DNA of 64,000 nucleotides from Escherichia coli O127:H6 str. E2348/69 (GTDB lineage: Bacteria; Pseudomonadota; Gammaproteobacteria; Enterobacterales; Enterobacteriaceae): NCBI RefSeq assembly GCF_000026545.1, contig NC_011601.1, one strand, 5' to 3'. The notes beneath the pieces were generated by a model. That model worked only from the letters and a program-made list of their open reading frames with translations. It had not been told where the DNA came from and searched no databases. The position numbers and the translations under genes are program-made. Position 1 is the stretch's first letter, and each line of letters starts with the position of its first letter. Below, piece by piece: positions 20,906 to 64,000 of this stretch.

Positions 20906-22888
20906 TTACCATTGATAACTCACGAAAATTTTTCCGTTACGACCATCCTGTGGGATGCCTTGCGGCGACCAGTACTCTTTATCGAAGGCGTTGCCCAATA
21001 CCAGAGTAGTGGTCATGCCTTTGAGCGCCTGCTGCCCTTGATAACTGACGTAGAAATCATTCACACCATAGCCAGGTTGTTTGCTGTAGCTGCTGCTGAT
21101 ATGTGTTGAGCGATCGGCAAACGTACCGACCCAACCAACAGAGAAGCCACTGTGAGCGATCGGAATATTCAGGGTACTGGTAACGGTATCCGGGTTAATG
21201 CTGGAGATATATTCCCCGGTATCGGTGTCTTTGCCGCGGGTACGGTTATAGGCCACATCAAGGCTAAACAGATCAGTGGTATATTTCGTCATCACATCCC
21301 AGCCCCAGATTTTGGCGTTCGGGACGTTATACGACATAGTTGTCGCCGCCGCGAAATCGACGGTCGTGGAGATATAATCTTTCGCTTTGGTATCAAAGTA
21401 GCTGGCTTTAAATTCCAGAGCATCATTGGACAACATCAGGTCATCAAAACGCAGCCCAAAACCGTACTCCTGAGTTTCGTTAGTTTCCGGACGTAAGTTC
21501 GGGTTTGGCACCCAATAGTTGGTATAGAAGCGACCAATCGAGAAGTGTTTAGAATCGTTATACATTTCGCCCATCGTCGGGGCGCGGAATGCCTGAGCAT
21601 ATGAGCCAAATAACATCAGCCAGTTGGTCGGGTTGATAGTCATCCCCGCACGAGATGACCATTTGTCGGCATCAACATCTTTGTAGCCGTCGCTGCTACC
21701 GCGATAACTGTCATAGCGGGTTCCGCCAAGCAGGGTAATCGGCAGATCGCGTAAGGTGATCTCATCTTGTAGCCAGCCAGAGCTAAAATCGATTTTTGCT
21801 TGCGGGAAGCCCGTCGTCGCGCCACCCGGATGTTGTTCCTGACGATAATACTCACCGCCATATGTCAGTAAGTGAGAAGCGAAACTGTCGGCAAATAGAG
21901 TGGAACGGTTCTCCAGCCTTGCTCCTTTTGTTATCTGTTCACGATACTCGCCTGAACTCCCCGTGTTTTGCGCATTAATACGGACTTCCGACCAGTAAAT
22001 TTTTGCATCTGCATTTAACCAGTCGTTACCCTGCGGGGCGAGTTTATAAGAAAGCTGCGCATCGCGTTGAATTGTTGAACGATCGACCATCGGGTTGCTG
22101 CTATCAGAAGCTTCAACGGTCTGCGGATTTTTTGGTTCACGCGCGTCGTTGTTGTAGTAACGCACTAAACCGCTCAGAGACTGGGCTGAATCAATTTGCC
22201 AGGTCCCTTTCGCCAGCATGTTATTAATGGACTCGTCATTCGGCGCGGTTTCACCATTGCTCTGGCGTAAATCACCCCGATCGCGACTGGACCAGGCCAC
22301 AATACCATCCAGATTTTCAGTTCGCCCAAACGCGCTCGCGCCTAATCCCAGGCTATGGTCCCCCGTGCCGCCAGTACCAAAGACACTAAAACCACTACTT
22401 TGTCCTTCCTGCAATAAATCTTTTGCATCGACCGTATCGTAGGAGATCACCCCACCCAGCGCGCCACTGCCATACAGTAATGCTGAAGGTCCGCGAACAA
22501 TCTCAACACGCTTGATCAGCGCCGGATCAAGAAAAGTACCATTCAGGTGTCCGGTATCCGTTCCCTGGCGAACACCATCGACAAGAACCAGCACGCCGCG
22601 ATGATCATAGCCACGCATATTTACATCCTGACCGTTGGTTCGTCCGGTACCATCAAGAGTAATTCCAGGAACATGACGCAGCAAATCAGTGGCTGAAGTA
22701 GCCGTTTGATTTTCAGGAGCGGAAGTGTCGATAACGCTGACCATCATAGGCGCTTCGAAGGAACTACGTGCATTCCCCGTTGCCGTAACGGTCATGGTTT
22801 CAGTAGCAAAAGCAAACGTTGGCAAGGTGGCAGAAACAGCCAAAGCCAACAAACTCAAACGCAACGAGGTAAATTGCGGACGTGACAT
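20906..22888 (-). CDS. chuA: TonB-dependent outer-membrane heme/hemoglobin receptor ChuA
   Basis: 660-aa ORF with signal peptide, TonB-box region, the heme-receptor FRAP and NPNL motifs, and a C-terminal aromatic residue. Confidence 0.95.
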   Translation of the reverse strand: MSRPQFTSLRLSLLALAVSATLPTFAFATETMTVTATGNARSSFEAPMMVSVIDTSAPENQTATSATDLLRHVPGITLDGTGRTNGQDVNMRGYDHRGVLVLVDGVRQGTDTGHLNGTFLDPALIKRVEIVRGPSALLYGSGALGGVISYDTVDAKDLLQEGQSSGFSVFGTGGTGDHSLGLGASAFGRTENLDGIVAWSSRDRGDLRQSNGETAPNDESINNMLAKGTWQIDSAQSLSGLVRYYNNDAREPKNPQTVEASDSSNPMVDRSTIQRDAQLSYKLAPQGNDWLNADAKIYWSEVRINAQNTGSSGEYREQITKGARLENRSTLFADSFASHLLTYGGEYYRQEQHPGGATTGFPQAKIDFSSGWLQDEITLRDLPITLLGGTRYDSYRGSSDGYKDVDADKWSSRAGMTINPTNWLMLFGSYAQAFRAPTMGEMYNDSKHFSIGRFYTNYWVPNPNLRPETNETQEYGFGLRFDDLMLSNDALEFKASYFDTKAKDYISTTVDFAAATTMSYNVPNAKIWGWDVMTKYTTDLFSLDVAYNRTRGKDTDTGEYISSINPDTVTSTLNIPIAHSGFSVGWVGTFADRSTHISSSYSKQPGYGVNDFYVSYQGQQALKGMTTTLVLGNAFDKEYWSPQGIPQDGRNGKIFVSYQW

Positions 22889-23178
22889 AGCGATTCTCCA
22901 TGAGGAAAATAAAAAATGCTGGCTGCCTGGGTTAATACCGGGGTGGCTGGCGAAAAATAAATTTATTTACAATTCAAATGATTAGATATCACCACGGGAA
23001 GCTATTAGCGTATATATCCCGTAAAATTGCCGAATATTTCTGATAATTCAGCAAAAGCACGCCCTCTTTGTCAGGCAAAGTAGTACGCCACGTCTGAAGT
23101 GAAGAGTGCTGTGCGTTTTCCCTTACAAAAGATATGATTTTGTTATCCATGATGTCATATTTTGTTAAACTCAAACGT

Positions 23179-23197
23179 GATAATGAGAATTATTATC
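23179..23197. promoter_or_regulatory. Fur box in the chuA–chuT divergent region
   Basis: gataatgagaattattatc matches the Fur consensus GATAATGATAATCATTATC at 17 of 19 positions. Confidence 0.6.
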
Positions 23198-23524
23198 GAT
23201 CAATTTTTTATGATCAAGCTTTTTTTAACCGCCATTAACGCAATAAACAGGGGGTTATGAAATCTATCCAGCATCCAGAAAACCATCCTGTGTTTATGGC
23301 TATCCCCCCACAACCTCATCACAAAACGTTGTCGTTAACAGTGATAATTTTCTCTTCTCTTTGCTCTGCAAGCCGCGATATCTCCGGGTTCTCAGCTTTT
23401 TCCCGCGCTGAAATTTAATCGGTAACAAGAACATTAGCTGACGAAGCATCTTGATAAAAATCAAAAATAAATACGCTTGTAACGCCGTGCGTATTGAATC
23501 GACGGTTGTATTTCATATATAACT

Positions 23525-23547
23525 CAAATGATAATCATAATCATTCT
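23525..23547. promoter_or_regulatory. Fur box just upstream of chuT
   Basis: aaatgataatcataatcattctc, 25 bp upstream of the proposed chuT ATG. Confidence 0.6.
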
Positions 23548-23571
23548 CAATTTGATAAGAGTTCTCACATT

Positions 23572-24486
23572 ATGCCAAGGATCATCACCAGGCCGTTTCT
23601 TTTTTCCCCACTAACGTTATGTATTTCAGCCGTGGCCTCTGCCGCGAAGACCATGGTAAAACGAAAAAAATTGTTTACGGCATTACTGGCTTTTAGCTGG
23701 ACTTTTAGCGTAACGGCTGCCGAACGTATCGTGGTCGCAGGAGGATCGCTGACGGAGCTAATCTACGCGATGGGCGCTGGCAAACGCGTGGTTGGTGTCG
23801 ATGAAACGACATCTTATCCACCAGAAACCGCCAAACTGCCGCATATTGGTTACTGGAAACAACTCAGCAGCGAAGGCATTTTGTCACTTCGCCCGGATAG
23901 CGTAATTACCTGGCAGGATGCAGGACCGCAAATTGTGCTCGACCAACTGCGGGCGCAAAAAGTCAACGTCGTCACTCTGCCGCGTGTACCAGCCACCCTT
24001 GAGCAGATGTACGCCAACATTCGCCAACTGGCAAAAACGTTACAGGTTCCTGAACAAGGCGAGGCGCTGGTGACACAGATCAACCAACGCCTGGAGCGAG
24101 TACAGCAAAACGTGACGGCCAAAAAAGCCCCGGTTAAAGCCATGTTTATTCTCTCCGCAGGCGGAAGTGCGCCACAGGTTGCCGGTAAAGGCAGCGTCGC
24201 GGACGCCATTCTTTCGCTTGCCGGAGCAGAAAACGTCGCTACCCACCAGCAGTACAAAAGCTACAGCGCGGAATCGCTGATTGCGGCTAACCCTGAAGTG
24301 ATTGTCGTCACCTCACAAATGGTCGATGGCGATATTAATCGGCTACGTTCTATTGCCGGAATTACCCACACTGCCGCCTGGAAAAACCAGCGCATTATCA
24401 CCGTTGATCAAAACCTGATTCTGGGAATGGGTCCGCGTATTGCTGATGTCGTTGAGTCTTTACACCAGCAGCTTTGGCCGCAATAA
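23572..24486 (+). CDS. chuT: Periplasmic hemin-binding protein ChuT
   Basis: Class III periplasmic binding-protein fold. Start at 23572 (304 aa) is chosen because the longer ORF-track start (23494) overlaps the Fur box; a third in-frame ATG at 23653 is also possible. Confidence 0.85.
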   Translation: MPRIITRPFLFSPLTLCISAVASAAKTMVKRKKLFTALLAFSWTFSVTAAERIVVAGGSLTELIYAMGAGKRVVGVDETTSYPPETAKLPHIGYWKQLSSEGILSLRPDSVITWQDAGPQIVLDQLRAQKVNVVTLPRVPATLEQMYANIRQLAKTLQVPEQGEALVTQINQRLERVQQNVTAKKAPVKAMFILSAGGSAPQVAGKGSVADAILSLAGAENVATHQQYKSYSAESLIAANPEVIVVTSQMVDGDINRLRSIAGITHTAAWKNQRIITVDQNLILGMGPRIADVVESLHQQLWPQ

Positions 24487-24505
24487 ATGGATTTAAATCA
24501 GACGA

Positions 24506-25843
24506 ATGAACACAAATAACACCCTGGATCTCACGCCACATTTTGCTTTAGACGGTGATCAGCCATTTAAAGACAGGCGCGCCATGATGCCGTTTCGTGG
24601 GGCCATTCCGGTTGCCAAAGAGCAACTGGCACAGACCTGGCAAGAGATGATCAATCAAACGGTATCACCACGTAAGCGACTGGTTTACCTACACATTCCT
24701 TTTTGTGCGACACACTGCACGTTTTGTGGTTTTTATCAGAACCGTTTTAATGAAGATGCGTGTGCTCATTATACCGACGCCCTGATTCGTGAAATAGAAC
24801 TGGAAGCAGACAGCGTATTGCATCAGTCTGCCCCCATCCACGCGGTCTATTTCGGTGGCGGTACGCCTTCCGCGCTTTCAGCACACGATTTGGCCAGAAT
24901 CATCACCACATTACGAGAAAAGCTGCCACTGGCCCCTGATTGTGAAATCACTATTGAAGGCCGGGTACTGAATTTTGACGCTGAGCGAATCGATGCTTGC
25001 CTTGATGCAGGAGCAAACCGCTTCTCAATTGGTATTCAGTCGTTTAACAGCAAAATCCGCAAGAAAATGGCCCGCACCTCGGATGGCCCAACCGCTATTG
25101 CGTTTATGGAAAGCCTGGTCAAACGCGATCGTGCCGCGGTGGTCTGTGACCTGCTGTTTGGTCTGCCGGGTCAGGATGCGCAAACCTGGGGAGAAGATCT
25201 GGCTATTGCCCGCGATATCGGTCTCGACGGCGTCGATCTCTATGCGCTCAATGTCCTGCCCAATACACCGCTGGGCAAAGCCGTGGAAAATGGGCGTACT
25301 ACCGTGCCCTCTCCGGCAGAACGTCGCGATCTTTACCTGCAAGGGTGTGATTTTATGGACGATGCCGGTTGGCGCTGCATCAGTAACAGCCACTGGGGCC
25401 GTACCACACGCGAACGCAATCTCTATAACCTGCTGATTAAACAAGGTGCCGATTGTCTGGCCTTTGGTTCCGGAGCCGGCGGTTCGATTAATGGTTACTC
25501 CTGGATGAACGAACGCAATCTTCAGACCTGGCATGAATCCGTCGCAGCAGGCAAAAAACCGCTGATGATGATCATGCGTAACGCCGAACGTAACGCGCAG
25601 TGGCGTCATACCTTGCAGTCGGGCATTGAAACGGCGCGTGTACCGCTGGACGAACTTACGCCACATGCCGAAAAACTCGCGCCGTTACTGGCCCAGTGGC
25701 ACCAAAAAGGCTTAAGCCGCGATGCGTCAACGTGTCTGCGGTTGACCAATGAAGGTCGTTTCTGGGCAAGCAACATTTTGCAGTCTCTTAATGAACTGAT
25801 TCAGGTACTTAATGCGCCAGCAATTGCGCTTGAAAAACCATAA
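24506..25843 (+). CDS. chuW: Radical-SAM anaerobic heme-degrading methyltransferase ChuW (HemN-like)
   Basis: 445-aa ORF with the radical-SAM motif CATHCTFCGF. Confidence 0.9.
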   Translation: MNTNNTLDLTPHFALDGDQPFKDRRAMMPFRGAIPVAKEQLAQTWQEMINQTVSPRKRLVYLHIPFCATHCTFCGFYQNRFNEDACAHYTDALIREIELEADSVLHQSAPIHAVYFGGGTPSALSAHDLARIITTLREKLPLAPDCEITIEGRVLNFDAERIDACLDAGANRFSIGIQSFNSKIRKKMARTSDGPTAIAFMESLVKRDRAAVVCDLLFGLPGQDAQTWGEDLAIARDIGLDGVDLYALNVLPNTPLGKAVENGRTTVPSPAERRDLYLQGCDFMDDAGWRCISNSHWGRTTRERNLYNLLIKQGADCLAFGSGAGGSINGYSWMNERNLQTWHESVAAGKKPLMMIMRNAERNAQWRHTLQSGIETARVPLDELTPHAEKLAPLLAQWHQKGLSRDASTCLRLTNEGRFWASNILQSLNELIQVLNAPAIALEKP

Positions 25844-25855
25844 CAGGAGTGATTT

Positions 25856-26350
25856 ATGAGCCATGTCTCGTTACAGGAATTTTTGAAAACGGAGCCAGAC
25901 GGTACGCTGGAGGCGATCGCCGAACAATACAACACCACGCTGCTGGAGGTAGTGAAAAATCTGCCCTCTCCGACTGTTGTGCCAGGTGATAAATTCGATA
26001 CTGTCTGGGATACCGTCTGCGAATGGGGCAACGTCACCACGTTAGTACATACTACCGATATAATACTCGAATTTAGCGGCGAACTGCCTTCGGGTTTCCA
26101 TCGCCACGGCTATTTCAACCTACGCGGAAAGCACGGCATGTCCGGGCATATCAAAGCAGAAAACTGCACGCATATTGCCTTGATCGAACGTAAATTTATG
26201 GGCATGGACACCGCCTCTATTCTCTTTTTCAATAAGGAAGGCAGCGCAATGCTGAAAATCTTCCTCGGTAGGGATGATCATCGTCAGCTCCTGAGCGAAC
26301 AAGTCAGCGCCTTCCATGCTCTGGCAGCATCGTTAAAGGAACACGCCTGA
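25856..26350 (+). CDS. chuX: Heme-binding/trafficking protein ChuX
   Basis: 164-aa ORF with an aggag SD, in the expected position within the chu operon. Confidence 0.85.
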   Translation: MSHVSLQEFLKTEPDGTLEAIAEQYNTTLLEVVKNLPSPTVVPGDKFDTVWDTVCEWGNVTTLVHTTDIILEFSGELPSGFHRHGYFNLRGKHGMSGHIKAENCTHIALIERKFMGMDTASILFFNKEGSAMLKIFLGRDDHRQLLSEQVSAFHALAASLKEHA

Positions 26351-26973
26351 TGACACCGTGGCTACTCTTTGGCGCAGGCGGAAAAGGTGTGGGTGCCAGA
26401 ACGCTTGAACTGGCGCTGGCGGAACAACGTCCGGTCGTTGCTGTCATTCGTCATGCCAATGCCGCCATGAAACTGGCGCAACAAGGCGTACAGGTTTTTA
26501 CAGGCGACGCCTGTGATGCCAGCGTAGTCGCGGCTGCTTGCCGCGCAGCTGGCCCGGATGCGCTTATCATCTCAACAATGGGCGGAGCTCAGGATTATCT
26601 GGCGCACAGAACAGTGATTGATGAGGCCGAGAAGGCTGGCATCAGTCGCATGATTCTGGTGACCTCTTTGGGATGCAGCGATAGCTGGCCGTTTTTATCA
26701 GAGCGGGCAAAGGCTGCGTTTGGTCAGGCGGTACGGGAAAAAACGCTGGCGGAAACCTGGTTGCAAACCAGCCAGCTTGATTATGCCATTCTCCGCCCCG
26801 GCGGTCTGCTTGATGGTGCGGCAACGGGCAAAGCACAACGGATACAAAATCAGGAGTGTCATGGTTTTGTTAACCGTGCTGATGTCGCCGCACATATCCA
26901 TGAACTGGCAAATGCGCCAGCACTTAACCAGCAGGTCTACAGTCTGATTGAACCGGACCTGAAACCGGCGTGA
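26350..26973 (+). CDS. chuY: NAD(P)-dependent anaerobilin reductase ChuY
   Basis: 207-aa ORF with an N-terminal Rossmann-type motif; start overlaps the chuX stop. Confidence 0.85.
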   Translation: MTPWLLFGAGGKGVGARTLELALAEQRPVVAVIRHANAAMKLAQQGVQVFTGDACDASVVAAACRAAGPDALIISTMGGAQDYLAHRTVIDEAEKAGISRMILVTSLGCSDSWPFLSERAKAAFGQAVREKTLAETWLQTSQLDYAILRPGGLLDGAATGKAQRIQNQECHGFVNRADVAAHIHELANAPALNQQVYSLIEPDLKPA

Positions 26974-27021
26974 TCCCCCGGCGCGGCATATCCGCGCCGT
27001 AATGTCGTAACGGAGTTTTGC

Positions 27022-28014
27022 GTGCTCAAGGATTCACTCTCTTCCGCCAGGATCTTTATGGGGCTATCACTATTATTGCTCGCTCTGGTGCTGTTCAGTG
27101 CCAGTCAGGGAGCGTTAAAGATCAGTTTTGATGCCCTTTTTGATGAGGAATACCGCGATATCTGGCTCAATATTCGTCTACCACGGGTTTTGCTGGCGGT
27201 GCTGGTAGGTGCAGCGTTGGCAACCGCAGGGGTAATTATGCAGGGGCTTTTTCGCAACCCAATGGCTGACCCTGGATTACTTGGCGTCAGTAGCGGTTCT
27301 GCATTAATGGTTGGCGTTGCTATTGTGCTGCCCTTCTCCTTCCCAGTGGTGCTGGTGCTCTATGAGCAAATGGTGTTTGCCATTGCCGGAAGTTTAGTGG
27401 TCTGCACCATCATTTTTCTCATCACGCAGCGCCATCGCGATGGCAGCATGATGCAATTATTACTCGCCGGTATCGCCATCAATGCCCTGTGCGGCGCAGC
27501 GATCGGCATCCTGAGCTATATCGGCGATGAGCAGCAGCTACGACAACTCACATTGTGGATGATGGGCAATCTTGGACAGGCGCAATGGCCGACGTTATTG
27601 GTTGCCAGTTCATTCATCCTACCGGCCATTATCGCAACAACTTGTCTCGCCGGAACGCTGAATTTACTGCAGCTCGGTGATGAAGAAGCCCACTACCTCG
27701 GCGTGAACGTGAAGCGTAAACGCCAGCAATTACTGTTAGTGAGCTCACTGCTCGTTGGTGCTGCCGTATCGGTAAGCGGCATTATCGGCTTTATTGGCCT
27801 GGTGATCCCGCATCTGATTCGCATGACTACCGGGGCAAATCACCGCTGGCTAATCCCTTGTTCCGCCCTCGCCGGAGCCTGTTTATTGCTGATGGCAGAC
27901 ACGCTTGCCCGCACGCTGGTACAGCCAGCAGAAATGCCCGTGGGATTATTAACCAGCCTGCTTGGTGGCCCTTATTTTATGTGGTTGATTCTGCGCAACC
28001 GGAGGATCACATGA
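27022..28014 (+). CDS. chuU: Hemin ABC transporter permease ChuU (FecCD family)
   Basis: 330-aa polytopic ORF of the FecCD/BtuC permease family. Confidence 0.9.
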
Positions 28015-28781
28015 TCAGCGCCCAGAATCTGGTTTATAGCCTTCAGGGGCGGCGTCTGACTGATAATGTCTCGCTGACTTTTCCCGGTGGGGAAATTGTT
28101 GCCATCCTCGGCCCTAATGGTGCGGGAAAATCTACGCTGCTTCGCCAGCTAACCGGCTATCTTCAACCTGATAGCGGCGAATGTTGGTTGTTTAATAAGC
28201 CATTAAATGAATGGTCGATTACTGAACTGGCGAAACACCGGGCCGTGATGCGTCAAAATAGCCACATGGCGTTTCCATTCAGCGTACAAGAAGTTATCCA
28301 GATGGGGCGGCATCCGCATCGTACTGGTAATCAGGATAATGAAACAGCACAAATAATGGCGTTATGTGACTGTCAGGCGTTAGCAAACCGCGACTATCGG
28401 CAATTATCCGGTGGTGAACAACAGCGCGTGCAATTAGCGCGCCTGCTGGTGCAACTCTGGGAACCTACTCCCTCACCGAAATGGTTATTTCTTGATGAAC
28501 CAACTTCGGCGCTGGATATTCACCATCAGCAGCACTTGTTTCGTTTATTACGCCAGTTAGTTCACGAACGGCAGTTCAATGTTTGCTGCGTATTGCACGA
28601 TCTAAATCTTGCCGCGCGTTATGCAGACCGTGTTGTATTAATGCAAAAAGGAAAGGTTATCGCAAATGGTAAGCCGCAGGACGTATTGACACAGCAGGCG
28701 CTGACAATGCTCTACGGCGCGGATATTACCGTACTTAAAGATCCTGCCAACCATTCACCACTGATCGTCCTCGATCATTAA
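28011..28781 (+). CDS. chuV: Hemin ABC transporter ATP-binding protein ChuV (HmuV)
   Basis: 256 aa from [11 protein letters not shown]; Walker [10 protein letters not shown], signature LSGGEQQR, Walker B LFLDEP; ggagg SD; ATGA overlap with the chuU stop. The ORF track starts 51 codons upstream inside chuU. Confidence 0.92.
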
Positions 28782-31943: not shown

Positions 31944-32471
31944 ATGATTTTTCTCATGACGAAAGATTCTTTTCTTTTACAGGGCTTTTGGCAGTTGAAA
32001 GATAATCACGAAATGATAAAAATCAATTCCCTGTCAGAGATCAAAAAAGTAGGCAATAAACCCTTCAAGGTGATCATTGACACCTATCACAACCATATCC
32101 TTGATGAAGAAGCGATTAAATTCCTGGAGAAATTAGATGCCGAGAGAATTATTGTTTTGGCACCTTATCACATCAGTAAACTAAAAGCTAAAGCGCCTAT
32201 TTATTTTGTCAGCCGTAAAGAAAGTATCAAAAATCTTCTTGAGATTACTTATGGTAAACACTTGCCCCATAAGAATTCACAACTATGTTTTTCACATAAT
32301 CAGTTCAAAATTATGCAACTGATTCTGAAAAACAAAAATGAAAGCAATATCACGTCAACGCTCAACATTTCGCAACAAACATTAAAGATTCAGAAATTCA
32401 ACATTATGTACAAGCTGAAATTAAGACGTATGAGCGACATCGTCACCCTGGGTATCACATCTTATTTTTAG
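31944..32471 (+). CDS. gadE: LuxR-family acid-resistance master regulator GadE
   Basis: 175 aa from MIFLMTKDSFLLQGFWQLKD with an aaggag SD; the ORF track starts 26 codons upstream. Confidence 0.92.
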   Translation: MIFLMTKDSFLLQGFWQLKDNHEMIKINSLSEIKKVGNKPFKVIIDTYHNHILDEEAIKFLEKLDAERIIVLAPYHISKLKAKAPIYFVSRKESIKNLLEITYGKHLPHKNSQLCFSHNQFKIMQLILKNKNESNITSTLNISQQTLKIQKFNIMYKLKLRRMSDIVTLGITSYF

Positions 32472-32809
32472 TAAGGACATAAGCAACTGAAATTGATGGC
32501 TGGCATGACGAGGGATGCAGATGCTGATTTCAATACCCCCGGTGATTATTGAAGGAGAGACGAAAACGACTTTATTCCCCTGGTATGTGTATCCACCAGT
32601 AGAACCCTTCGTTGCCCGAATGCTGGCAGAAACTGTTGGCAGAACGGCAACATTTTTTTTGTCGTTGACCTCACCATGTCGATCACTGTGCTTGCATCCC
32701 ATCTTACTGGCTGACAACCCCACTATGCCGCTGGTCTGTAAATCCCTCATATCTCTCCTCGCGCGCAATTTAAAGAACCGTTATTTCTCAAGAATTTTCA
32801 GGGACTAAA

Positions 32810-38196: not shown

Positions 38197-38442
38197 GACT
38201 ATTCCTTATATTTCATTACTGCGATTATTTCAATGTCAGTATACTAATGAAATGACGCCAGACTGTTTCTGTGTGCAAAAACTGCCATATTTGGTAGGAC
38301 CAAATTTTATCCACAAAGTAGTTTTGCATAACAGTTAATTGATAATAAGTAAATGCAACACGATTATATTTTCACACAGCGTATAGCTTATGTTTATAAA
38401 AAAATGGCTGATCTTATTTCCAGTAAAAGTTATATTTAACTT

Positions 38443-38548
38443 ACTGAGAGCACAAAGTTTCCCGTGCCAACAGGGAGTGTTATAACGGTTTATTAGTCTG
38501 GAGACGGCAGACTATCCTCTTCCCGGTCCCCTATGCCGGGTTTTTTTT
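38443..38548 (+). ncRNA. gadY: GadY small RNA (overlaps the gadX 3' UTR on the opposite strand)
   Basis: actgagagcacaaagtttcccgtgccaacagggag...ccggtcccctatgccgggtttttttt matches my recollection of GadY and ends in an intrinsic terminator. Confidence 0.75.
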
Positions 38549-38564
38549 ATGTCTGAGTAAAACT

Positions 38565-63686: not shown

Positions 63687-64000
63687 TTACTCGTTATCCG
63701 GGTTAAGACGACGACGACTAATAATACGCAGCAGACGCCACAGTACCCATGCCAGCAATATCACACTGATAGCCGCCAGCACCGCCAGCAGAATCGGATG
63801 GTTTGCCAGCGCATACCACAAGCGCTCGAACCACGGCAGATGACCTACGTAATAAACATCGCCAACACGTAGGCTGTTGATACCGGACTCGCGGATCACC
63901 GCGACCGAACCGAACATGGTGGCGCGTTTGCCGCTATCGTTCACCGCATCGTTAAGCATTTCATAACCGCGTGGGCTATCTGCCAGCAGCGCAATCACGC
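63687..64000 (-). CDS. bcsB: Cellulose synthase regulatory subunit BcsB, C-terminal end only; gene continues past window end
   Basis: Minus-strand reading ends ...LAAISVILLAWVLWRLLRIISRRRLNPDNE* with a C-terminal TM anchor. Confidence 0.85.
   Translation of the reverse strand, partial: VIALLADSPRGYEMLNDAVNDSGKRATMFGSVAVIRESGINSLRVGDVYYVGHLPWFERLWYALANHPILLAVLAAISVILLAWVLWRLLRIISRRRLNPDNE

Follow-up and report, generated by a model that had tools for sequence, protein, structure and literature searches.

Intact chuW, chuX and chuY Genes in the chu Heme-Utilisation Locus of Escherichia coli O127:H6 E2348/69

Does the EPEC reference strain E2348/69 carry an intact set of the genes chuW, chuX and chuY, and what would these genes allow the strain to do with heme when oxygen is absent? 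Our data leave little doubt on the first point: the region that we analysed holds chuW, chuX and chuY, all intact, as part of the chu locus for heme utilisation in E. coli O127:H6 E2348/69. It is an ordinary and already annotated set, and the genes, the products, the pathway and two of the three structures are published. The present analysis established gene integrity, family membership, near-identity to characterised proteins, purifying selection, promoters with Fur boxes and an intact set of uptake genes. The EPEC reference strain thus has a complete and apparently functional chu locus that includes the oxygen-independent heme-degrading branch, which is in keeping with an anoxic gut habitat and with the membership of E2348/69 in the chuA-positive lineages of E. 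coli.

Organisation of the Three Genes

The window, that is the whole stretch of 64 kb that was analysed, is identical at 64000/64000 positions to NZ_LT827011.1 3756443–3820442 (E. coli O127:H6 EPEC E2348/69). Three ORFs with ATG start codons lie next to each other on the plus strand: chuW at 24506–25843 (RefSeq gene name hutW, CDS WP_001095625.1), encoding a radical-SAM methyltransferase of class C with 445 aa, the anaerobilin synthase; chuX at 25856–26350 (RefSeq hutX), encoding a cytoplasmic heme-binding protein of 164 aa; and chuY at 26350–26973, encoding an NADPH-dependent anaerobilin reductase of 207 aa. The RefSeq CDS coordinates of E2348/69 correspond exactly to these ORFs, and the products are named ChuW/HutW, HutX and anaerobilin reductase ChuY. 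None of the three genes contains an internal stop codon. The E-values against the ChuW/HutW (2e-171), HutX (2e-62) and NAD_binding_10 (3e-36) profiles show that the ORFs are not due to chance.

An earlier reading of the sequence alone had described the set as uninterrupted and tightly packed, with an aggag Shine-Dalgarno sequence in a 12 nt gap before chuX, and with chuY overlapping the chuX stop codon. The exact ORFs, free of frameshifts, and both junctions bear this out. The stop codon TAA of chuW (25841–25843) is followed by a plus-strand spacer of 12 nt (25844–25855, CAGGAGTGATTT), in which AGGAG at 25845–25849 is 6 nt away from the ATG of chuX. At the second junction we read TGATG on the plus strand (26348–26352): the stop codon TGA of chuX (26348–26350) and the ATG of chuY (26350–26352) have one base in common, an arrangement that is typically seen with translational coupling.

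ChuW Matches the ChuW/HutW Family over Its Full Length

The motif CATHCTFCGF is found at residues 67–76 of ChuW, and the cysteine triad CxxxCxxC of radical-SAM enzymes, which the sequence-only reading had noticed, is complete (Cys67, Cys71 and Cys74). A best match to an unrelated radical-SAM enzyme would have spoken against ChuW, but the best profile was the ChuW/HutW equivalog TIGR04107 with 570.2 bits at a cut-off of 400, covering residues 19–432 and profile positions 2–418 of 419. The Pfam Radical_SAM profile matched residues 62–230 (E = 2e-20), and a GGGTP motif was found at residue 117. A search of the PDB revealed no solved structure of ChuW; the best matches were HemN (1OLT) and NocN (9P2U). 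In the alignment to 1OLT (residues 56–303, E = 2e-25) the HIPFC..C.FCG, GGGTP, IE, GxQ and DLxxGLP segments are kept. We take GGGTP, GxQ and DLxxGLP to be SAM-binding segments, with single residues putatively assigned to a SAM1 and a SAM2 site as in the HemN structure.

ChuW is identical to ChuW of O157:H7 at 437/445 residues (98%) in a gapless full-length alignment. The eight substitutions (T3A, V53A, L99M, P252S, M355L, I374V, A441M, L442R) leave all Cys, Asp and Arg residues in place and are located outside the recognised motifs; in ChuW and ChuX together, whose key residues include a critical Asp and heme-ligand histidines, respectively, no Asp, Cys, Arg or His of the O157:H7 counterparts is replaced. 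Residue R311, which was named for ChuW in PMC10114669, reads Ile at position 311 in the present numbering. Since residues 253–354 are the same as in the O157:H7 protein, this mismatch is a matter of numbering.

The sequence-only reading had also named the HemN C-terminal domain as a means of recognising ChuW. This did not hold: the Pfam profile HemN_C (PF06969) gave no significant match in ChuW; it reached 12.8 bits where 24 are required (E = 0.12) and covered residues 388–420 only. Class C enzymes have diverged in the 'CpdH-like' domain (PMC10114669), and because the review places the divergence in that domain, we did not treat HemN_C as family-defining. It was dropped as a criterion; the equivalog match over the full length and the 98% of residues shared with the characterised enzyme were considered decisive. 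Judged by these similarities, ChuW of E2348/69 is predicted to open the heme ring in a SAM-dependent and O2-independent reaction that yields anaerobilin.

ChuX and ChuY Are Nearly Identical to Crystallised Proteins

ChuX was recognised by the Pfam model PF06228 (ChuX_HutX; E = 9e-35, 120 bits at a cut-off of 25) and by TIGR04108 (HutX; 209.9 bits at a cut-off of 110), and the ChuX structure 2OVI matched all residues from 1 to 164 (E = 8e-107). The alignment to the O157:H7 protein is gapless over the full length, with 157/164 identical residues (96%) and the substitutions A20V, I21V, K34R, P39S, T67A, I69V and A155T. All ten histidines are unchanged, His65 and His98 among them. Binding of heme in a 1:1 ratio and hand-off to a degrading enzyme were reported for ChuX and HutX (PMC10404700).

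For ChuY, the profile PF13460 (NAD_binding_10) matched residues 8–190 over its entire length (positions 1–184/184) with E = 3e-36. The glycine-rich loop GAGGKGVG is present at residues 8–15, and the strict GxxGxxG pattern is absent from the protein. The structures 5GUY and 5FFQ matched the whole length (residues 1–207, E about 1e-131), and 202/207 residues (98%) are identical to O157:H7 ChuY in a gapless full-length alignment, the differences being N37D, M40T, S110G, T136S and N175R. None of the NCBIfam models matched ChuY at E <= 0.001. Its identification therefore rests on near-identity to crystallised and characterised proteins, and RefSeq presumably derived the name anaerobilin reductase from a rule other than an HMM.

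Gene Context and Regulation

None of the eight chu CDSs is disrupted, and they are collinear with those of O157:H7. The plus-strand run begins with chuT (23572–24486, periplasmic heme-binding protein), which ends 19 nt upstream of chuW; downstream of chuY follow chuU (27022–28014, heme ABC permease with a GTG start) and chuV, also named hmuV (28011–28781, heme ABC ATPase). The divergent minus-strand genes are chuA (20906–22888, TonB-dependent heme receptor) and chuS (19829–20857, cytoplasmic heme-binding and heme-degrading protein). The coordinates of these five genes are those of RefSeq.

A promoter-like site on the plus strand upstream of chuT (−35 element at 23512, −10 element ending at 23541) is overlapped by a Fur box at 23530–23548, which agrees with the consensus at 17/19 positions; together they span 23512–23548. 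The same agreement is shown by a Fur box at 23179–23197 that overlaps a promoter-like site of chuA on the minus strand (23217–23189). These are the only sites with two mismatches in the window; among the remaining sites, one has four mismatches (23524–23542, within the chuT cluster) and all others have six. The shuA/chuA thermometer scored above its Rfam gathering score.

An internal Fur box or promoter of chuW or chuU was considered as evidence of separate operons and rejected, as only Fur sites with six mismatches occur inside chuW and chuX, and no promoter-like sites were found on the plus strand between 23541 and 28781. A terminator scan showed no strong terminator-like site on the plus strand between chuT and chuV; the few matches on this strand there were short intracoding stems, and the shuffled control of the scan already gave 11.2 sites. 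In a Ler microarray of E2348/69, chuT, W, X, Y, U and hmuV (E2348C_3744–3749) were shifted together 5–6-fold (PMC3891560). This joint change implies that chuTWXYUhmuV is expressed and co-regulated in E2348/69.

Published operon maps disagree, giving chuTWXYUhmuV, or chuTWXY and chuUV, or chuWXY. A conserved GC-rich hairpin (26979–26999) is located in the 48 nt spacer between chuY and chuU. As an unusual fold it was discarded, since its z value of −0.8 is no different from that of shuffled sequence. We considered it improbable that this hairpin acts as a processing or stability element which uncouples chuUV from chuTWXY in their levels, and that the chuX-chuY overlap fixes the ratio of ChuX to ChuY, with ChuX handing the tetrapyrrole to ChuY. 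If true, uncoupling by the hairpin would reconcile the conflicting operon maps. In E2348/69 the factor of change was the same for all six genes (PMC3891560), and the support for the hairpin and for the ratio of ChuX to ChuY does not go beyond anatomy.

Proposed Pathway of Heme Degradation

The mechanism is that published for the proteins of O157:H7 and CFT073 (PMC10114669, PMC10114718, PMC12670364, PMC10404700), and its steps were carried over to E2348/69 by near-identity. Under iron limitation Fur would leave the chuT promoter, and chuT-W-X-Y-U-V would be transcribed together. Heme would be imported via ChuA/TonB and ChuTUV, and would then be bound in the cytoplasm by ChuS and possibly by ChuX. 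A [4Fe-4S] cluster of ChuW, held by Cys67, Cys71 and Cys74 and reduced by flavodoxin, is expected to split one SAM, and the resulting 5′-deoxyadenosyl radical would remove a hydrogen from a second SAM at its methyl group. The methylene radical thus formed would join a meso carbon of the porphyrin, and beta-scission would open the ring without O2, freeing the iron and the linear tetrapyrrole anaerobilin. ChuY would finally reduce anaerobilin with NADPH, which probably serves detoxification. From the intact genes we infer that E2348/69 can use heme iron anaerobically.

The sequence-only reading had relied on this published pathway of ChuW, ChuX and ChuY. The three identities stand, supported by profiles, gapless alignments and the structures 2OVI and 5GUY/5FFQ, and no feature of the sequence speaks against them. 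No particular step of the ChuW/ChuY route has been defined for ChuX, which is described as a heme-binding protein that regulates ChuS (PMC12670364, PMC10404700); it may take part in the anaerobic route of E2348/69, and its role there is not agreed in the literature (PMC12670364). The further view of heme-iron use without oxygen as well as through ChuS, taken as a split between an anaerobic ChuW and an aerobic ChuS, is simpler than the literature has it, since ChuS was reported to give heme to ChuW, and the division of aerobic and anaerobic labour with ChuS is not agreed upon (PMC12670364).

Alternative Explanations

The module may chiefly serve to detoxify heme and tetrapyrroles and to maintain their homeostasis rather than to acquire iron, with ChuX acting mainly as a heme buffer and ChuS regulator and not as a partner of ChuW. 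Reviews increasingly view anaerobic heme degraders as detoxifiers, and the phenotype of a ChuY deletion in CFT073 was put down to the build-up of toxic tetrapyrroles (PMC10114669, PMC12670364, PMC10404700); the reported regulation of heme degradation by ChuS through ChuX points in the same direction (PMC12670364, PMC10404700). Control by Fur boxes and the link to heme import that is induced by iron starvation favour iron acquisition as the selected function, and we therefore regard a primary role in detoxification as possible but somewhat doubtful. Both roles are compatible, and this explanation overlaps with iron acquisition through anaerobic heme degradation, from which it differs only in emphasis.

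It is very unlikely that chuW, chuX and chuY are intact yet silent or dispensable in E2348/69, as passengers of the chu island, with ChuS alone releasing the iron. For homologues of ChuS, anaerobic degradation of heme with NADH was reported in vitro (PMC12670364), no obvious Shine-Dalgarno sequence was seen before chuW (aaatcagacgaATG), and our literature search found neither strain-specific functional data nor an experiment that directly addresses how E2348/69 uses heme anaerobically. Selection, distribution and expression argue against a silent module. Compared to O157:H7, dN/dS was 0.069 for chuW, 0.089 for chuX and 0.110 for chuY (0.07–0.11 for chuU and chuV, 0.02 for chuA, 0.13 for chuS), which indicates that the three genes are under continued purifying selection. 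The module is present in 2238/5426 complete E. coli genomes and is of full length in 2235 of these 2238 carriers, as judged by coverage and identity. In addition, transcription and co-regulation were recorded in E2348/69 itself (PMC3891560).

That chuW encodes a HemN-, HemW- or HemZ-type enzyme, i.e., an oxygen-independent coproporphyrinogen oxidase or a heme chaperone and not a heme degrader, is hardly credible: the HemN-like radical-SAM core is recognised by 1OLT and by the HemW, HemN and HemZ models (E = 1e-43 to 1e-29), older annotations of the gene read 'putative coproporphyrinogen oxidase', and the 2014 annotation of E2348/69 also names a coproporphyrinogen oxidase (PMC3891560), but the scores of the sister models lie far under their curated cut-offs (HemW 147 bits against 205, HemN 128 against 325, HemZ 103 against 321) while the ChuW/HutW equivalog is matched well above its own, the nearly identical O157:H7 protein was shown to make anaerobilin (PMC10114669, PMC10114718), and the gene is set within a Fur-controlled heme-uptake locus.

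Comparison with Known Systems

The closest relative of the E2348/69 enzyme is the anaerobilin synthase ChuW of O157:H7 (LaMattina et al. 2016, according to the review PMC10114669), which has the same 445 aa, the same CxxxCxxC and GGGTP motifs and the same place between chuT and chuX, and which differs by the eight substitutions only. ChuX passes both models of the family formed by O157:H7 ChuX (2OVI) and HutX of V. cholerae, with seven substitutions compared to O157:H7. ChuY, with its 207 aa, is nearly identical to both crystallised anaerobilin reductases of CFT073/O157:H7 (5GUY, 5FFQ), with five differences from the O157:H7 protein. HemN (CpdH) of E. coli (1OLT) and ChuW have in common a radical-SAM core that holds two SAM sites. 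They differ in the diverged C-terminal domain, as reflected by the HemN_C result, and in their chemistry: HemN catalyses a decarboxylation, whereas ChuW is assigned a ring-opening methylation.

In hutWXZ of V. cholerae and hmuW-hmuF of F. nucleatum, as in chu, the gene for a radical-SAM anaerobilin synthase adjoins a gene for a heme-binding protein within a heme-uptake locus; of these loci, only those of V. cholerae and E. coli are reported to be regulated by Fur (PMC10114669, PMC12670364, PMC10404700). The loci differ in their further genes. V. cholerae has hutZ, the gene of a heme oxygenase, in third place, and NADPH is used there by HutW itself, whereas F. nucleatum has the flavodoxin-like HmuF in place of ChuX/ChuS and ChuY. 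The window of E2348/69 shows the arrangement of E. coli and Shigella, with ChuY.

Identity and anatomy of chuW, chuX and chuY

The sequence-only reading had called chuW-chuX-chuY an intact module for anaerobic heme degradation. The six-frame ORF list has all three genes on the plus strand with ATG starts: chuW (24506-25843, 445 aa), chuX (25856-26350, 164 aa) and chuY (26350-26973, 207 aa). No internal stops were found in their translations. The junctions are as described by that reading: chuX starts 12 nt after chuW (TAA, then CAGGAGTGATTT, then ATG, with AGGAG at 25845-25849), and the start of chuY overlaps the stop of chuX (TGATG, 26348-26352); the three genes are tightly packed and uninterrupted. 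For chuW, the 19-nt gap that follows chuT (24487-24505, aaatcagacgaATG) contains nothing recognisable as a Shine-Dalgarno sequence, in contrast to chuX, chuU (GGAG) and chuV (GGAGG). This gap is identical in O157:H7.

RefSeq annotation was taken from NZ_LT827011.1 (E. coli O127:H6 EPEC E2348/69, 3756443-3820442), which the window matches without mismatch over 64,000 bases. It has CDSs at the exact coordinates of all three ORFs, named heme anaerobic degradation radical SAM methyltransferase ChuW/HutW, heme utilization cystosolic carrier protein HutX, and anaerobilin reductase (gene chuY). The independent profile searches agree with this naming. ChuW scored 570 bits against the NCBIfam equivalog TIGR04107, whose cut-off is 400, with nearly the entire profile covered. 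Pfam detected the Radical_SAM domain, and the cysteine triad is present in F-C-A-T-H-C-T-F-C-G-F (CxxxCxxC; Cys67, Cys71, Cys74). Among the proposed checks only the one for a HemN C-terminal domain failed, since Pfam HemN_C was not significant (E = 0.12); this is expected because in class C radical-SAM methyltransferases the "CpdH-like" C-terminal domain is the part that has diverged (PMC10114669). The models for HemW, HemN and HemZ, considered as other identities for ChuW, all scored far under their own cut-offs. ChuX exceeded the cut-offs of both PF06228 and TIGR04108, as proposed for the ChuX/HutX family, and aligns end to end with the sequence of crystal structure 2OVI. ChuY, expected to be an NAD(P)-binding reductase, is an NAD_binding_10 protein over its full length and almost identical to ChuY as crystallised in 5GUY and 5FFQ; the profile search gave no NCBIfam HMM match for it. 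Every tested defining feature of ChuW/HutW, ChuX/HutX, ChuY and the chu locus was found, with two exceptions: HemN_C, which is non-defining, and an NCBIfam model for ChuY, which is missing.

The characterised ChuW originates from E. coli O157:H7, and an O157:H7 locus was therefore chosen for comparison. Full-length alignments were gapless throughout, with 437 of 445 (ChuW), 157 of 164 (ChuX) and 202 of 207 (ChuY) residues identical (96-98%). The eight ChuW substitutions (T3A, V53A, L99M, P252S, M355L, I374V, A441M, L442R) hit no cysteine, nor the GGGTP segment or any Asp or Arg; neither a frameshift nor a loss of catalytic cysteines was seen. DNA identity is only about 96%, and most differences are therefore synonymous. 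The dN/dS values (Nei-Gojobori) of 0.069 for chuW, 0.089 for chuX and 0.110 for chuY point clearly to purifying selection acting on working genes.

Proposed heme degradation pathway

From the literature we infer the following mechanism for E2348/69. The [4Fe-4S] cluster of ChuW would be reduced via flavodoxin/Fpr/NADPH, and ChuW would cleave SAM to a 5'-deoxyadenosyl radical, which would abstract a hydrogen from a second SAM at its methyl group. The resulting methylene radical would add to the porphyrin and beta-scission would open the ring, freeing iron and yielding anaerobilin (PMC10114669, PMC10114718), which ChuY would reduce with NADPH (PMC10114669, PMC10404700). In CFT073, the harm from losing ChuY is attributed to tetrapyrrole accumulation (PMC10114669, PMC10404700). 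ChuX binds heme 1:1 and shares its fold with ChuS and HutX (PMC10404700); PMC12670364, citing Ye et al. 2024, lists it as regulating heme degradation by ChuS. To assign ChuS to oxic and ChuW to anoxic conditions, as suggested, is a simplification, since ChuS is reported to pass heme to ChuW, and anaerobic, NADH-dependent heme degradation in vitro is reported for ChuS homologues (PMC12670364).

Locus organisation and regulation

The three genes form the middle of the plus-strand run chuT (23572-24486)-chuW-chuX-chuY-chuU (27022-28014)-chuV/hmuV (28011-28781), with gaps of 19, 12, -1, 48 and -4 nt; chuA (20906-22888) and chuS (19829-20857) are divergent on the minus strand. None of the eight chu genes is disrupted, and their order is collinear with that in O157:H7. 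Within the acid-fitness region the locus is flanked by dctR and yhiD, and the block (19829-28781) has about 49-55% G+C versus about 37-43% in the acid-fitness-island flanks (slp-dctR on the left, yhiD-hdeBA-hdeD-gadE on the right).

Several features were seen elsewhere in the window. Between dinQ and slp (16297-18333), arsC (16914-17339) is the sole annotated gene, and RefSeq has no arsR or arsB CDS between dinQ and arsC; an Rfam AgrB antisense RNA (16655-16739) and a frameshifted, truncated pseudogene (17956-18333) were also observed. Between gadE and mdtE, the sRNA ES205 (Rfam, 106.5 bits, 32589-32660, plus strand) lies within, and antisense to, a minus-strand "hypothetical protein" CDS (32421-32750) that overlaps the 3' end of gadE and may not be a real gene. 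GadY (Rfam, 150 bits, 38440-38553, plus strand) occupies its expected acid-fitness-island position between gadW and gadX.

The entire 64-kb window was scanned with the 19-bp Fur consensus. Only two sites had two mismatches (17/19): 23179-23197, on the promoter-like site of chuA (minus strand), and 23530-23548, on a promoter-like site of the plus strand, 30 nt before the ATG of chuT. A third site with four mismatches (23524-23542) overlaps the latter, and Fur hexamers may therefore be arrayed at the chuT promoter; all other sites had six mismatches. The mechanical chuT ORF begins with TTG at 23494, and the annotated ATG (23572) is favoured because this extension (23494-23571) contains the -10 hexamer as well as the Fur box. 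The chuA start codon region is overlapped by a match to Rfam shuA_thermo, a FourU RNA thermometer of the shuA/chuA 5' UTR (22886-22917, minus strand; 60.1 bits versus a gathering score of 58). RefSeq has no feature in the 683-bp divergent intergenic region (22889-23571), where locus tags skip from RS20250 (chuA) to RS20265 (chuT). A long, 291-nt chuA 5' UTR with sRNA and Rho inputs is described in the chuA-chuT intergenic region (PMC9002310).

The only loose end is the conflict between published operon maps, which give chuTWXYUhmuV (PMC12670364), chuTWXY plus chuUV (PMC9002310), or a three-gene W-X-Y operon (PMC10114669). Between chuT and chuV we found neither a plus-strand promoter-like site nor a strong plus-strand terminator-like site. 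In an E2348/69 microarray, chuT, chuW, chuX, chuY, chuU and hmuV (E2348C_3744-3749) shift together 5-6-fold (PMC3891560); E2348/69 therefore expresses these genes, and they respond as a single block. Together with the single Fur-box promoter and the tight spacing, this favours one six-gene unit, chuT-W-X-Y-U-V. The chuY-chuU spacer holds an 8-bp GC-rich hairpin without T-tract (CGGCGCGG-CAUAU-CCGCGCCG, 26979-26999, plus strand). Its stem is kept in O157:H7 with a single loop change, and its folding energy is unremarkable (z = -0.8). This hairpin might be related to the disagreement between chuTWXY plus chuUV and the six-gene unit.

Comparison with known chu loci

The identification of chuW-chuX-chuY is correct, ordinary and already known: the genes are annotated in the source genome, and their orthologues at 96-98% identity have been characterised biochemically, two of the three also structurally. 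The module is present in 2238 of 5426 complete E. coli genomes, always chromosomal and in single copy, and 3188 have no match to it. It is full length in 2235 carriers and falls below 80% coverage in three. One of these, E. coli HH45 (NZ_CP116411.1, 5433-8103), has a degraded locus in which a deletion from dctR into chuY removed chuS, chuA, chuT, chuW and chuX, leaving a 3' chuY fragment directly after dctR and intact chuU and chuV. HH45 exemplifies a broken module, and that of E2348/69 is unlike it.
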